Source: an uncultured Bacteroidales bacterium
Lineage (GTDB): Bacteria > Bacteroidota > Bacteroidia > Bacteroidales > JALTDM01
Reading direction: 5' to 3'
Assembly: GCA_964421355.1 (NCBI GenBank)
Contig: CAYQWX010000001.1
Span: forward strand, 1 to 56,470
Length of the DNA: 56,470 nucleotides
Shown: in pieces, positions 26,980 to 28,776 of the stretch
Position numbering within the stretch: the first letter of the stretch is position 1
Layout: every line of letters starts with the position of its first letter
Program-made: the position numbers and the translations under genes
Notes under the pieces: generated by a model
Told to the model about the DNA's origin: nothing
The model's database searches: none
Seen by the model: only the letters and a program-made list of their open reading frames with translations

Positions 26980-28776
26980 ATGAGTTTTTTTAATTTGAAA
27001 GGCACATTAAAACCATTAACATCATTAAGGCAATTTGCAAAAAAGCCTCATACTATTGAGTTTCCTTATGAAGTGCCTGAAACAAGTGAACGATATAGAG
27101 GATTACATTATAATGATATTGAACTGTGTATTGGTTGTGGCAATTGTTCTACAATATGTCAAAACCAAGCAATAGATATGATTCCGTTAGAGGGAGTAGA
27201 AGGACACAAAGGCGATTCAGGATTGCGTCCAAGAGTAGATAATGGTAGATGCTGTTGGTGTGCATTATGTGTAGAAGTTTGTCCTACAGGTAGTTTGTCT
27301 TTAACAAAAGACTATATTTTTGTTTCAGAAAATCCGGATGATTTTTTATGGACACCAGGTATAGATAATCCTGATGGTAAAAATCTTATATCTTTCATCT
27401 CTACTCAAGAAACTTCTTTGAATGAATATCAACGAGTACCAATGCCCGAATTGGAAGGAGAAGAAAGAGTAAAATCTTTTGCAGAAGTTGTATTGGGATA
27501 TCAAGAAGAAGAAGCTAGGGCAGAAGCCCAACGTTGTATTAGCTGTGGCTTATGTACCGAAGCTTGTCCCGATCATATGCATATTCCTGAATATATAAAT
27601 GCAATAGCATCAGGTAATGATGAAGATGCCATCCGTATTATATACGACAATAACCCACTTCCTGAAATGTGTGGTAAAGTATGTACCCGCCGTTGTGAAG
27701 AAGTGTGTGCTATTGCTAAACGAGGCGAACCTCTTGCTATTAGATGGCTTAAACGTTATGCTACGGAAAGGGCGATTAATGCTGATATGATAAAGGAAAT
27801 TGTTAATCCCAAAGTTGCTCCTGCTAATGGGCATAAAGTGGGTATTGTAGGGGCTGGTCCATCAGGATTAACTGCAGCATATTATTTGGCTTTGCGTGGC
27901 TTTGATGTTACTATATACGAAGCACACGACAAACCAGGAGGTATGACAATGTATGGGATTCCAAAATACAGATTACCTTTGGAAAGCTTGATGAAACAAG
28001 TGGCATATATGGAAAAGATAGGTGTTAAGATACATTATAACACTAAGGTTGGAAAAGATATTAGTTTTGAAGAAATATATGAAAAGTTTGATGCCGTATT
28101 TGTTGGTGTTGGATTTGGTAAACCTTGGACACTTGGAATAGAAGGAGAAGATTTGGAAGGGTCATCACAAGCTGTTTACTTCCTGGAAAGAATAAACAGT
28201 GGAGAAAGAATAGATGTTGGATATAAGGTAGTAGTAATTGGTGGAGGTAATGTGGCAATAGATGCTGCACGTGTATCCCGCCGTCTTGGAGCAGAAGTAG
28301 TAATGTTGTATCGTCGTAGGGTACAGGATATGCCTGCCGATTGGGAAGAAATAGAAGGAGCCGAAGCAGAAGGAGTAGAAATAATACCTCAAGCTATTCC
28401 AATTAAAATACATGGTGAAAATGGCAAGGTGAAAGCAGTAGAGTATCTAAAAGCTAGAATGGTACAAGATGCTAAAGGTGGAAGACCTAGACCGGAACCA
28501 ATAGAAGGTAGTAATACTGTAATTGAATGTAGTTCTGTATTTGCGGCTATTGGACAACAAGGAGACTATTCTTTTATAGAAGAAAGTAAGTTCAAAGATG
28601 CTATAAAAATAGAAAGAGGTCGTTTTGTGGTAAATGAAATGCAACAAACTACTCTTGAAAAGGTATTTGCAGGAGGAGATGCTGTAAATAGAACAGCTGA
28701 TGCTATTAGTGCAATTGCTGATGGATTTAGAGCAGTGAAAGGAATAGAAAAATTATTGTTGGGGAAAAATGTTTAA
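26980..28776 (+). CDS. mbxN: MBX/MBS-like subunit N (NuoI-like 2x[4Fe-4S]) fused to a GltD/NfnL-like FAD/NAD(P)H oxidoreductase
   Basis: RYRGLH..CIGCGNCSTIC and CCWCALCVEVCP, then RCISCGLCTEACP, GKVCTRRCEEVC, GAGPSG, GGGNVA, YRR and FAGGD. Confidence 0.9.
   Translation: MSFFNLKGTLKPLTSLRQFAKKPHTIEFPYEVPETSERYRGLHYNDIELCIGCGNCSTICQNQAIDMIPLEGVEGHKGDSGLRPRVDNGRCCWCALCVEVCPTGSLSLTKDYIFVSENPDDFLWTPGIDNPDGKNLISFISTQETSLNEYQRVPMPELEGEERVKSFAEVVLGYQEEEARAEAQRCISCGLCTEACPDHMHIPEYINAIASGNDEDAIRIIYDNNPLPEMCGKVCTRRCEEVCAIAKRGEPLAIRWLKRYATERAINADMIKEIVNPKVAPANGHKVGIVGAGPSGLTAAYYLALRGFDVTIYEAHDKPGGMTMYGIPKYRLPLESLMKQVAYMEKIGVKIHYNTKVGKDISFEEIYEKFDAVFVGVGFGKPWTLGIEGEDLEGSSQAVYFLERINSGERIDVGYKVVVIGGGNVAIDAARVSRRLGAEVVMLYRRRVQDMPADWEEIEGAEAEGVEIIPQAIPIKIHGENGKVKAVEYLKARMVQDAKGGRPRPEPIEGSNTVIECSSVFAAIGQQGDYSFIEESKFKDAIKIERGRFVVNEMQQTTLEKVFAGGDAVNRTADAISAIADGFRAVKGIEKLLLGKNV

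Follow-up and report, generated by a model that had tools for sequence, protein, structure and literature searches.

How does a bacterial complex of the MBS type (formerly Mbx) obtain its electrons when its input subunit N no longer stands alone? The sole MBS with biochemistry behind it is a ferredoxin-dependent archaeal enzyme, and the question is raised by a contig of an uncultured Bacteroidales bacterium, analysed here as a stretch of 56,470 nucleotides (the window). Within it, 13 consecutive genes on the + strand (17864-28776) carry the Pfam families expected of MBS, namely an Mrp-like module, two antiporter-like subunits and NuoH-, NuoB-, NuoC-, NuoD- and NuoI-like subunits, which by sequence is an operon for a bacterial relative of the archaeal enzyme. 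In place of a separate, ferredoxin-accepting N subunit, the last gene encodes an N domain fused in frame to a flavoprotein. The genes of the operon are as follows:

17864-18379, + strand: MbsA-like subunit (MnhE family), the first gene (Pfam MNHE, E 5.6e-43)
18379-18648, + strand: MbsB-like subunit, MrpF/PhaF family (Pfam MrpF_PhaF, E 1.2e-17)
18645-19010, + strand: MbsC-like subunit, MnhG family (Pfam PhaG_MnhG_YufB, E 4.7e-25)
19031-19315, + strand: MbsD-like subunit (Pfam MbhD, E 1.2e-20)
19312-20022, + strand: MbsE-like subunit with MbhE and MnhB domains (Pfam MnhB, E 9e-23; MbhE, E 3e-10)
20027-20407, + strand: NuoK/MnhC-like small membrane subunit (Pfam Oxidored_q2, E 1.8e-26)
20401-21906, + strand: antiporter-like subunit of MbsH/H' type, 501 aa (Pfam Proton_antipo_M, E 4e-66)
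21917-23767, + strand: antiporter-like subunit of MbsH/H' type, 616 aa (Pfam Proton_antipo_M, E 2e-60), upstream in related loci too
23783-24688, + strand: MbsM/NuoH-like membrane anchor of the peripheral arm (Pfam NADHdh, E 4e-53)
24701-25252, + strand: MbsJ/NuoB-like subunit, predicted to hold the proximal [4Fe-4S] cluster on C32, C97 and C127 (6u8y_J, E 7.8e-70)
25264-25836, + strand: MbsK/NuoC-like subunit (Pfam Complex1_30kDa, E 1.4e-27)
25849-26967, + strand: MbsL/NuoD-like subunit with an incomplete NiFe site (6u8y_L, E 5e-102)
26980-28776, + strand: fusion gene for an MbsN-like domain, a linker and an NfnB/GltD-like flavoprotein, 598 aa (ORF list, Pfam, NCBIfam and alignments)

The J and L subunits place the complex with MBS. 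Chain J of MBS is the best solved match of J, followed by NDH-K at 2e-41, and the MBS match of L compares with 2e-66 for Nqo4 and 1.6e-44 for the L subunit of MBH. The alignment of J to 6u8y_J runs without a gap, so the loop has the same length as in MbsJ, and it sets C32, C97 and C127 on the MbsJ ligands C28, C93 and C123; in the paper on MBS, the proximal [4Fe-4S] cluster of MbsJ is held by three cysteines and the loop is three residues shorter than in MBH. Gly29 stands at the place of the non-ligating C25 of MbsJ, and a single Cys replaces the tandem CC of complex I. Across related loci these residues scarcely vary (C32 in 65/65, C97 in 68/68, C127 in 70/70 and Gly29 in 64/65). L keeps two of four NiFe cysteines in vestigial form, C67 and C366 (C85 and C385 of MbsL), and the quinone-contacting His38 and Tyr87 of Nqo4 are replaced by T19 (73/73 related loci) and V68 (74/74). 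Consensus scans of positions 17300-29000 were not informative, with 52 promoter-like sites where 60.8 were expected and 9 terminator-like sites where 6.1 were expected.

The fusion gene begins 12 nt after the MbsL gene and is a single open frame on the + strand, starting at TTG 26974 or ATG 26980 and stopping at 28774-28776. Because close homologues begin MSF..., we take ATG 26980 as the start, and the same homologues support the predicted 598-aa product. Its motifs, all at verified coordinates, and its domains are as follows:

27127-27159, + strand: Fe-S motif 1 of the N domain, C50-x2-C53-x2-C56-x3-C60
27250-27282, + strand: Fe-S motif 2 of the N domain, C91-x2-C94-x2-C97-x3-C101
27535-27567, + strand: motif 1 of the second Fe-S domain, C186-x2-C189-x2-C192-x3-C196
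27670-27708, + strand: motif 2 of the second Fe-S domain, C231-x3-C235-x3-C239-x3-C243
27748-27756, + strand: LKR
27850-27867, + strand: GAGPSG, the FAD motif
28240-28257, + strand: GGGNVA, an NADPH-type motif
28309-28320, + strand: YRRR, directly after strand beta-2
27004-27357, + strand: MbsN/NuoI-like domain, residues 9-126, with two CxxCxxCxxxC motifs for two [4Fe-4S] clusters (6u8y_N match, NuoI models)
27466-27780, + strand: Fer4_20 domain, residues 163-267, for two further [4Fe-4S] clusters on seven Cys and Lys258 (Pfam, E 4e-29)
27751-27753, + strand: Lys258, at the position of the non-cysteine ligand of the flavin-proximal cluster (aligned with K170 of 8oh5_C)
27835-28725, + strand: two-Rossmann FAD/NAD(P)H module, residues 286-582, including Y330-R331 (Pfam Pyr_redox_2)

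A first-pass annotation, made from the letters alone, had described an N subunit that continues in frame into a GltD/NfnL-like flavoprotein with two more Fe-S motifs, GAGPSG, GGGNVA and YRR; the single ORF, the domain models and the motifs bear this out in full. Pfam placed Fer4 dicluster domains at residues 44-104 and Pyr_redox_2 at 286-582 (E 3e-27), the NCBIfam NuoI models matched residues 9-126, the best solved match of the N domain was 6u8y_N (E 2.7e-23, residues 9-116), and the full-length fusion model NF010590 (PRK13984) aligned to residues 7-595 (E 2e-195). These scores are far beyond chance.

The same uninterrupted ORF was found in 80/80 of the related species genomes kept, and the fusion gene is therefore not the assembly artefact that the annotation had allowed for. 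Logan contigs add minor support: four exact pieces from run X1 overlap end to end over the domain junction of ~1.3 kb without differences, no one record covering the whole 1.3 kb, and in run X2 positions 27203-27282 are uncovered among the pieces listed. The annotation had also asked how far the fusion extends. Across the 80 related loci, the L gene lies upstream in 76 and the order H-M-J-K-L-N is kept in 76, from many phyla. Carriers include Bacteroidales, Flavobacteriales, Cloacimonadota and Spirochaetes, and the full-length fusion with the same operon occurs in MAGs labelled Gammaproteobacteria, Thiosymbion ectosymbiont and Ectothiorhodospiraceae (loci L040, L054, L061, L073, L074, L078 and L080). 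All 16 Cys, including the eight of the N domain, are invariant in the alignment of 81 fusions, and K258 is invariant in each of three alignments (16/16, 47/47 and 81/81). Where downstream sequence was present (58 loci), an NfnA-like gene follows the fusion in 3 and an NfnB-like gene follows it in 5. The arrangement is thus real and widespread. It is also less new than the annotation implied: the family is already curated as PRK13984 in NCBIfam, and a 2015 paper notes the replacement of NuoI by a GltD-like protein in Thermotoga-type operons. In agreement with the annotation, we found no report in the literature of a biochemical activity for any fused complex.

A residue of note in the flavoprotein half is Lys258. 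In the solved chains of Thermotoga maritima NfnB and Pyrococcus furiosus NfnI-L, the site of LKR reads L-E-R, as it does in this genome's own, separate NfnB. To this extent the annotation was right to remark on LKR in place of LER. As an oddity the observation did not survive, since the lysine is the ligand type of StnC and is the majority state, found in 134 of the 150 nearest relatives; YRR occurs in 132 of 150 representative relatives. K258 aligns with K170 of 8oh5_C (StnC), counted from the chain numbering. According to the Stn paper, K170 ligates the flavin-proximal cluster of a non-bifurcating module in which electrons from NADPH run linearly along the cluster chain, and K170A and K170C cause severe loss of the physiological activities, whereas K170R keeps about half. 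In a tree of the flavoprotein domain, the fusion clade falls among modules of the Lys type, and the genome's own NfnB belongs to a separate clade of the Glu type (FastTree, SH-like supports; four of the 150 representatives with alignments below 330 residues left out; midpoint rooting, so that no direction of evolution is claimed). Short stand-alone relatives also occur (P0132, P0133, P0139, P0144 and P0149).

An AlphaFold2 model of the fusion protein reached a pLDDT of 90.6 and a pTM of 0.85, with a confident linker, which is consistent with two halves that keep a fixed position relative to each other. Foldseek returned NfnI-L (5jca_L; TM 0.90, rmsd 1.8 A) as the top match of the flavoprotein half, and the fold superposes on StnC (8oh5_C) with an rmsd of 2.0 A. 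In the model, YRRR directly follows strand 439-443, which is beta-2 of the second Rossmann fold. As a general rule of Rossmann folds, basic residues after beta-2 bind the 2'-phosphate of NADPH, and the alignment shows YRR in common between the fusion protein and the NADPH-dependent NfnB and NfnI-L chains.

Starting from the observed domain fusion, ligand and motif set, MBS-type J and L subunits and their conservation, we propose, at even chances, that the complex carries electrons along a linear wire and works as an ion-translocating NADPH:sulfane-sulfur oxidoreductase. What we infer is which way the electrons flow, that NADPH donates them, that sulfane sulfur accepts them and that ions are pumped. 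The input subunit N, as its sequence indicates, is joined to a lysine-type, non-bifurcating GltD/NfnB-like flavoprotein, and through this fusion the complex can probably take its electrons from NADPH and not from ferredoxin. NADPH would pass a hydride to FAD, which would release one electron at a time through the flavin-proximal [4Fe-4S] cluster (three Cys and Lys258) to the second flavoprotein cluster; each electron would continue along both N-domain clusters and arrive at the proximal cluster that J holds on three cysteines. With its open iron, this J cluster would then cleave the S-S bonds of polysulfide or a similar sulfane-sulfur compound and, as in MBS, the reaction in the J/L/M pocket would drive H+ or Na+ through the two antiporter-like subunits and the Mrp-like module. 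The separately encoded NfnAB, fed by ferredoxin and NADH, would supply the NADPH.

In support of NADPH-driven sulfane-sulfur reduction, the gene order is kept across phyla, NfnA- or NfnB-like genes follow the fusion in a few loci, and the genome encodes PFOR, Rnf, an [FeFe]-hydrogenase and a separate Glu-type NfnA-NfnB pair on another contig but no other NuoD-like gene and no molybdopterin enzyme able to serve as Psr; by its gene content it looks like a reductant-disposing fermenter. Moreover, in T. maritima the first gene of the homologous operon is reported to be 4.4-fold up on sulfur. Several points weigh against this reading. In the window, no sulfur-handling genes were seen beside the operon, a clear NSR or CoA-disulfide reductase was not found in the genome, and there is no independent sign of sulfur reduction by this organism. 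The vestigial cysteines of L, by their variation (C67 in 60/74 related loci, C366 in 47/76), would count against a sulfane reductase, and ferredoxin may still dock on the N domain. The driving force is also small. NADPH lies at about -320 mV and polysulfide at about -260 to -270 mV, and the step from NADPH to polysulfide yields only about 10-12 kJ for two electrons, whereas ferredoxin as donor would give far more. A review gives MBH a yield of 12 kJ/mol/2e-, which is about the same figure.

The same NADPH-to-J wire could end on another acceptor in the J/L/M pocket, such as menaquinone, an organic disulfide or persulfide, or thiosulfate, which would make the complex a membrane NADPH dehydrogenase analogous to complex I. 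The organism, whose genome encodes the quinone-using Nqr and cytochrome bd oxidase, has a quinone pool that could in principle be the acceptor; no canonical Nuo is present in the genome. The paper on MBS describes the catalytic-site chamber as hydrophobic, and many carriers of the fusion belong to non-thermophilic lineages not known as sulfur reducers. We nonetheless judge another acceptor unlikely: L has lost the His and Tyr of Nqo4, with T19 and V68 invariant in their place, and J follows the three-Cys MBS pattern and not the tandem CC of complex I, both of which argue against quinone. For menaquinone in particular, the MenA model had no match in the 99.8 %-complete genome, possibly a miss and not read as absence of quinone. 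The older Mbx model, in which ferredoxin feeds the N clusters and the flavoprotein hands the electrons on to NADP+, whether or not ions are pumped, seems improbable here. Electrons on that route would never reach the J/L/M pocket, the place at which MBS, MBH and complex I couple their reaction to the membrane arm, and the strict conservation of the three-Cys J cluster and of the membrane arm would have no explanation. Rnf and NfnAB already cover exchange between ferredoxin and NAD(P) in this genome. The 2015 paper does read the GltD-like subunit of Thermotoga-type operons in this way, GltD-like modules are reversible in Nfn, and PFOR could serve as the ferredoxin source; for archaeal MBS, this model has been superseded by direct polysulfide reduction.

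Operation in reverse, with ion-motive force pushing electrons from sulfide or polysulfide to NADP+ to yield NADPH, would be cheap across so small a redox gap, and it gains from the MAGs of Gammaproteobacteria, Thiosymbion and Ectothiorhodospiraceae, groups that include sulfur oxidisers, and from the F-type ATP synthase beta/epsilon pair just upstream of the operon in the window. In this organism it too has a low probability, because a fermenter-like genome with PFOR, [FeFe]-hydrogenase, Rnf and Nfn must dispose of reductant; the accessible parts of the literature on MBS hold no report of reverse activity. Very little weight can be given to flavin-based bifurcation or confurcation in which the fused FAD has the membrane complex as one of its branches. 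The domain has the NfnB fold at ~40 % identity to NfnB and NfnI-L, and Arg331 corresponds to R201 of NfnI-L, which contacts flavin N5; the equivalent Arg is, however, also present in non-bifurcating StnC, the operon lacks an NfnA-like partner, the Glu of bifurcating Nfn is the Lys of StnC in all 81 fusions, and the fusion clade lies away from the Glu-type modules. An ordinary glutamate synthase small subunit, or an artefact of assembly or gene calling, has next to no chance. The artefact is rejected by the 12-nt spacing to MbsL, the ORF in 80 other species genomes and the junction tiled by the X1 contigs. The annotation had foreseen misnaming, and 10 of 120 homologues among the matches listed bear the JGI name 'glutamate synthase small chain'; this identity is rejected in turn, the GltD models scoring far below their cut-offs (TIGR01317, 216 versus 448 bits; TIGR01318, 282 versus 483) and the genome giving only a 22-bit partial match to the Glu_synthase domain of a GltB large subunit.

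If NADPH-dependent sulfane-sulfur reduction coupled to ion pumping is the true function, an energy-conserving respiratory enzyme would run on a redox span of only about 50-60 mV, which would account for the disposal of NADPH-level reductant by many anaerobic bacteria of sulfidic habitats. The complex-I superfamily would then have three kinds of input module, the new one in addition to NuoEFG and free ferredoxin. New names could be given to several thousand database entries that are now called 'glutamate synthase small chain' or 'FAD-dependent oxidoreductase'. A broader proposal, which we consider doubtful, is that fused complexes are widespread and work in both directions as a 'complex I for sulfur'; such an ion-motive NAD(P)H:sulfane-sulfur oxidoreductase would conserve energy from a tiny redox span in fermenters and run backwards in sulfur-oxidising Gammaproteobacteria to make NADPH from sulfide, with an NADPH-type (YRR) and an NADH-type (xLE, Thermotogae and WOR-3) branch, each with Lys-tuned linear and not bifurcating flow.

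Among known systems, MBS of P. furiosus (PDB 6U8Y) is the nearest to the operon as a whole. The two share the 13-gene layout with its Mrp-like module, two antiporter-like subunits, M, J, K, L and N, and MBS is the best solved match of the J, L and N parts. In MBS, however, free ferredoxin donates at a stand-alone N of 208 aa, whereas the present N runs into a 450-aa module predicted to carry NADPH, FAD and 2x[4Fe-4S]; the non-ligating C25 of MbsJ is a Gly; and the hosts are a hyperthermophilic archaeon and a bacterium of the Bacteroidota. The 'Mbx-like' operon of Thermotogae (T. maritima, Thermosipho melanesiensis) has a PRK13984 fusion of the same full-length architecture. The Thermosipho fusion keeps K258 and all Cys, and the two fusion types form one clade of the flavoprotein-domain tree (SH-like support 98). 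Similar fusions in Thermotogae, which the annotation had mentioned, thus do exist (Thermosipho P0128, a representative ~44 % identical to the present protein), but YRR is the very motif that sets them apart. In the Thermotogae/WOR-3 branch, residues are inserted behind the glycine-rich loop and beta-2 no longer ends in YRR, which the present protein keeps: six of seven full-length Thermotogae/WOR-3 representatives read SLE or CLE there, and P0135 is gapped. The loss hints at a different pyridine-nucleotide preference, with use of NADH, and the YRR/xLE split offers a simple prediction of NADPH versus NADH use. Against NF010590, the present protein scored 650 bits over profile positions 9-608 of 611, below the equivalog cut-off of 946 bits; exactly one of 14 control genomes including T. 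maritima passed that cut-off, in an output that does not name it. By these scores the protein is of the NF010590 architecture but of a different subfamily.

For the flavoprotein half, the StnC/NfnABC-type module (PDB 8OH5, 9BOV, 9N5U) is the closest in character. It shares the Lys ligand and the Cx3Cx3C spacing (Cx5Cx3C in Nfn), Arg331 corresponds to R239 of StnC, and YRR is common to the fusion and 9n5u_A, the sole StnC-family chain with that region in the printed alignment; C114 of StnC is an Ile in the fusion. Both modules are part of a longer Fe-S wire. Stn is a soluble enzyme whose module has a NuoG/FdhF-like fusion partner and supplies a HydBC-like bifurcating core, whereas here Pfam found no NuoG/FdhF-like domain in the 598-aa protein, and the partner is the NuoI-like domain of a membrane complex. 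NfnB and NfnI-L (PDB 4YLF, 5JCA) have the same fold and the same FAD and NADPH motifs, but the proximal cluster of Nfn is of the Glu(Cys)3 kind and Nfn depends on NfnA, whereas the fusion has Lys, and no NfnA-like gene lies in or beside the operon. GltD (PDB 6S6S) likewise combines two low-potential clusters with FAD and NADPH, as a weaker match (E 7e-59 versus 1e-95 for Nfn). The fusion suggests that the lysine-ligated GltD-like module described for Stn can be reused as a plug that connects iron-sulfur wires to NADPH.

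The fused gene is a single open frame on the plus strand, running from an ATG at 26980 (in-frame TTG at 26974), 12 nt past the stop codon of the preceding gene, to a stop at 28774–28776; its translation gives a product of 598 residues. The first-pass annotation had read it as a built-in NADPH module, and translation recovered all the motifs it named, at confirmed coordinates: CxxCxxCxxxC twice in the N domain, a further CxxCxxCxxxC and a Cx3Cx3Cx3C in the second Fe–S domain, and LKR, GAGPSG, GGGNVA and YRRR, all within the same frame. Domain models matched the product as follows.

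Residues 9–126, plus strand: NuoI match (NCBIfam models)
Residues 44–104, plus strand: 4Fe-4S dicluster domains (Pfam)
Residues 163–267, plus strand: Fer4_20 domain of GltD/DPD-type proteins (Pfam)
Residues 286–582, plus strand: pyridine-nucleotide-disulfide oxidoreductase fold (Pfam)

A model of exactly such a fusion, NF010590 (PRK13984, 'putative oxidoreductase'), covers residues 7–595 (E = 2e-195) with 650 bits, below its equivalog cut-off of 946 bits. When both halves were compared against all solved structures, subunit N of the P. furiosus membrane-bound sulfane reductase (MBS) ranked top for the N-terminal domain (6u8y_N, 2.7e-23), with the N subunit of MBH behind it (6.5e-9). The best matches of the C-terminal 450 residues were NfnB-type chains, including P. 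furiosus NfnI-L (1.3e-95), T. maritima NfnB (6.1e-95) and the NfnABC/Stn family (3e-96 to 1e-89), with Azospirillum GltD at 7e-59 and DPD at 9e-40. An AlphaFold2 model built with 47 homologues (mean pLDDT 90.6, pTM 0.85) is poorly defined at residues 1–30 only and has a confident linker; its flavoprotein half superimposes on NfnI-L (TM 0.90, r.m.s.d. 1.8 Å) and on StnC, the GltD-like module of Stn (r.m.s.d. 2.0 Å).

An assembly artefact is excluded, because the same frame recurs in other genomes and contigs of a public run cover the domain junction end to end with zero differences. A word-index search scored 8,000 candidates, of which 7,877 proteins matched at E ≤ 1e-20; each of the best 120 has 595–605 amino acids, with 73–92% identity and query coverage of at least 99%. 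NCBI names are attached to seven of these 120, as 'FAD-dependent oxidoreductase' or 'oxidoreductase' of Bacteroidetes, Bacteroidales, Chlorobi or Candidatus Sulfidibacterium. An exhaustive search showed both halves in only 13 of the best 150 representatives of 50%-identity clusters, the remainder sharing the flavoprotein module alone within other architectures. A one-genome-per-species scan gave at least 591 pattern matches, 527 of which encode a relative. The best 80 of these 527 are fusions, full-length or truncated by contig ends, in metagenome-assembled genomes or isolates labelled Bacteroidales, Rikenellaceae, Lentimicrobiaceae, Flavobacteriales, Saccharicrinis, Chlorobiota/Melioribacter, Calditrichaceae, Neomarinimicrobiota, Aminicenantes/Acidobacteriota, Cloacimonadota, Spirochaetes, WOR-3 and Gammaproteobacteria. 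One copy, in a Chlorobiota genome (L015:6001–7797), contains one in-frame stop codon, which may reflect sequencing error, pseudogene status or recoding. Taken together, the fusion is real, very widespread, and a divergent member (YRR branch) of an already noticed, curated kind.

The fusion ends a 13-gene plus-strand block (17864–28776) that opens with MnhE-, MrpF-, MnhG-, MbhD-, MbhE/MnhB- and NuoK-like subunits and continues with two antiporter-like subunits (501 and 616 amino acids) and NuoH-, NuoB-, NuoC- and NuoD-like subunits. Just upstream on the same strand lie genes for ATP synthase beta and epsilon subunits (15065–16840), followed, before the operon, by phosphopantetheinyl-transferase-like and thiamine-binding-protein-like genes. 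The NuoB-like subunit J matches MBS chain J best (7.8e-70; runner-up NDH-K, 2e-41), and the NuoD-like subunit L matches MBS chain L (5e-102) ahead of Nqo4 (2e-66) and MBH L (1.6e-44). According to excerpts of the MBS structure paper, three MbsJ cysteines alone (C28, C93 and C123) ligate the proximal cluster; C25 is too distant because its loop is three residues shorter than that of MBH, and C25 and two vestigial MbsL cysteines (C85 and C385) are dispensable for catalysis. In a gap-free alignment, the three MbsJ ligands correspond to C32, C97 and C127 in J of the window, and Gly takes the place of C25; in L, C67 and C366 occupy the vestigial positions, and the quinone-contacting H38 and Y87 of Nqo4 become T19 and V68, counted along the alignment. 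From the ligand set of J and these residues of L, the catalytic end of the complex is, on sequence grounds, of the MBS kind and not of the complex-I or hydrogenase kind.

This arrangement is conserved. An MbsL-like gene lies upstream of the fusion on the same strand in 76 of the 80 best loci, the other four having under 300 bp of sequence ahead of the fusion. The gap is mostly below about 150 nt (about 340 nt in L028 and 1,050 nt in L040), and the order H-M-J-K-L-N is kept in every locus with sufficient sequence. Across these loci the three J ligands are invariant (65/65, 68/68 and 70/70) and the residue at the C25 position is Gly in 64 of 65, whereas the two vestigial cysteines of L are variable (60/74 and 47/76), which fits their dispensability in MBS.

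The LKR motif, remarked on in the first-pass annotation where GltD-type proteins read LER, does contain lysine, yet it is no oddity. The transhydrogenase Nfn has two GltD-like clusters, one of which, according to a review, is Glu(Cys)3-ligated, as in glutamate synthase. In StnC, excerpts of the Stn structure paper assign the corresponding position to a lysine, K170, which coordinates the flavin-proximal cluster; there, the flavin is described as non-bifurcating and NADPH electrons as travelling linearly along the cluster chain. The same excerpts report severe loss of physiological activities in K170A and K170C, with about half kept in K170R. Counted along the HMMER alignment to 8oh5_C, K258 of the fusion is exactly K170, and the Cx3Cx3C spacing is that of StnC and not the Cx5Cx3C of Nfn; by contrast, the separate NfnB of the host genome (39% identity to the fused domain) has L-E-R and the Nfn spacing. 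K258 is invariant among the fusions examined (16/16, 47/47 and 81/81), and among the best 150 cluster representatives across the protein universe the column holds K in 134, E in 13 and H in 2. As its sequence reads, the lysine marks a known subtype that is common and non-bifurcating. An extra cysteine, Cys231 (27670–27672), stands four residues ahead of the first ligand of Cx3Cx3C; it is invariant in 81/81 fusions, but neither P. furiosus NfnI-L nor StnC has it. By analogy with Cys114 of StnC, Cys231 could be an alternative ligand exchanging with Lys258.

In the structure model, GGGNVA forms the glycine-rich loop after strand 416–420, and YRRR follows strand 439–443. By the Rossmann-fold rule, basic residues at the latter position bind the 2′-phosphate of NADPH and an acidic one confers selectivity for NADH. 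The NADPH-dependent NfnB and NfnI-L chains have YRR, as do 132 of the 150 representatives, and YRRR is present in the window and in each of the 80 nearest genomes (81/81). The fusion family divides at this position. The branch of WOR-3 and Thermosipho melanesiensis (P0128), the latter in line with the similar fusions in Thermotogae named in the first-pass annotation, has an insertion behind the glycine-rich loop, and YRR is lost. Among its seven full-length representatives, six have SLE or CLE instead, and the seventh, P0135, is gapped there. In a FastTree of flavoprotein domains (148 rows, four representatives with short alignments omitted), all 13 fusion rows fall inside one 19-row clade (SH-like support 98), comprising a non-YRR, xLE-type subclade of 8 rows (99) and a YRR subclade of 11 rows (93), both separate from the Glu-type clade that contains the host's own NfnB. 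We infer that the window-type fusion uses NADPH and suspect that the Thermotogae type uses NADH. Five members of the fusion clade (P0132, P0133, P0139, P0144 and P0149; 402–484 amino acids) are without the N domain; N termini of their own in P0149 and P0133 mean that unfused forms may exist, and P0132, which begins at the counterpart of an internal Met, may be a truncated call.

Neighbours 3′ of the fusion were compared in the 58 loci with at least 1.2 kb of sequence there. A rubrerythrin/ferritin-like gene (about 148 amino acids), a neighbour already mentioned in a 2015 paper, follows directly in nine (domain scan on two), namely L025, L033 (7801–8259), L034, L054, L064, L073 and three more. 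In P0129 (764 amino acids), the C terminus is extended by a stretch with ExxH repeats, which, read by eye, looks like the same rubrerythrin-like domain fused on. Four loci (L021, L023, L026 and L030; domain scan on one), labelled Melioribacter/Melioribacteraceae, Calditrichaceae or uncultured bacterium, have a dihydroorotate-dehydrogenase-like gene (328 amino acids; for example, L023:7836–8822), recalling the pairing of GltD-like and DHO_dh-like parts in dihydropyrimidine dehydrogenases. NfnA-like genes follow in 3/58 and NfnB-like genes in 5/58 (one of each scanned), immediately downstream in L049 (7785–10202), L031 and L065 (both genes) and in L055 and L082 (NfnB-like); genomes of certain Spirochaetes and Flavobacteriia have such neighbours. 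Their position suggests that Nfn and the complex are functionally linked, and it fits NADPH supply. The window's operon has neither an Nfn-like nor a rubrerythrin-like neighbour.

The host genome (2.18 Mb, 130 contigs, 99.8% complete) bears the Bacteroidota hallmarks of T9SS sorting domains and LptC, and its sole NuoD-like gene is that of this operon. It encodes RnfC, PFOR, NqrF and [FeFe]-hydrogenase, with an NfnA–NfnB pair on another contig, and no match above cut-off to CoA-disulfide reductase and no molybdopterin oxidoreductase were found in it. The host looks like a fermenter making reduced ferredoxin that is convertible to NADPH via Nfn and, apart from cytochrome bd, its genome looks like that of a strict fermenter with Rnf, Nfn and [FeFe]-hydrogenase. 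Elsewhere in the window are a 1,867-residue protein (41032–46635, minus strand) that carries many Ig-like repeats, with a T9SS sorting domain at its C terminus, a 1,029-residue protein with PPDK_N (PEP-utilising, ATP-binding) and weak response-regulator and DUF5752 matches (48239–51328), and subunit I of a cytochrome bd oxidase (Pfam E = 1e-168) followed by a 352-residue frame (52233–54674).

The best reading, held with middling confidence, is that NADPH drives sulfane-sulfur reduction with ion pumping through a wire of clusters. NADPH would reduce FAD, and single electrons would pass from the Lys-ligated proximal cluster to the second flavoprotein cluster, the two N-domain clusters and the three-Cys cluster of J, whose open iron would break polysulfide S–S bonds, as excerpts propose for MBS; the membrane arm would turn the reaction into an ion gradient. 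With Lys instead of Glu, the proximal cluster plausibly has a higher potential, enabling linear, non-bifurcating transfer, an argument made for StnC. Bifurcation, for which a GltD-like module in Nfn is the precedent, is very unlikely with this lysine. Another acceptor, such as menaquinone, is unlikely: Nqr and cytochrome bd both need quinone, but the MenA model had no match in the host genome, which may be a miss, and the quinone-contacting residues are replaced in L. The older ferredoxin:NADP+ model is improbable, even with a ferredoxin-making host; excerpts of the 2015 paper, which noted a GltD-like protein in place of NuoI, take this flavoprotein for the NAD(P)+ reduction site, and those of a 2022 T. 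maritima paper, in which sulfur induces mbxA 4.4-fold, model the complex as ferredoxin-dependent, with neither enzyme assay nor mention of the fusion. A glutamate synthase or an artefact has a negligible chance: although, as the first-pass annotation foresaw, JGI names 10 of the best 120 proteins 'glutamate synthase small chain', the host genome has no credible match to the large subunit. A 2013 review of modular complexes reportedly mentions the Thermotogales fusion. Our search of open-access papers and preprints found no biochemical or structural study of the fused complex, and none linking LKR to the StnC lysine or describing the YRR/xLE split; the function predicted here is a testable question.

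The textbook potentials of NADP+/NADPH (about −320 mV) and polysulfide/sulfide (about −260 to −270 mV) lie close together. They give a standard free energy of only about 10–12 kJ per two electrons, so pumping would be feasible at low stoichiometry and the reaction should reverse easily; as a rival reading, reverse operation is improbable. This free energy is near the 12 kJ per mol per two electrons that a review gives for MBH and well under its 42 kJ for ferredoxin-driven MBS.
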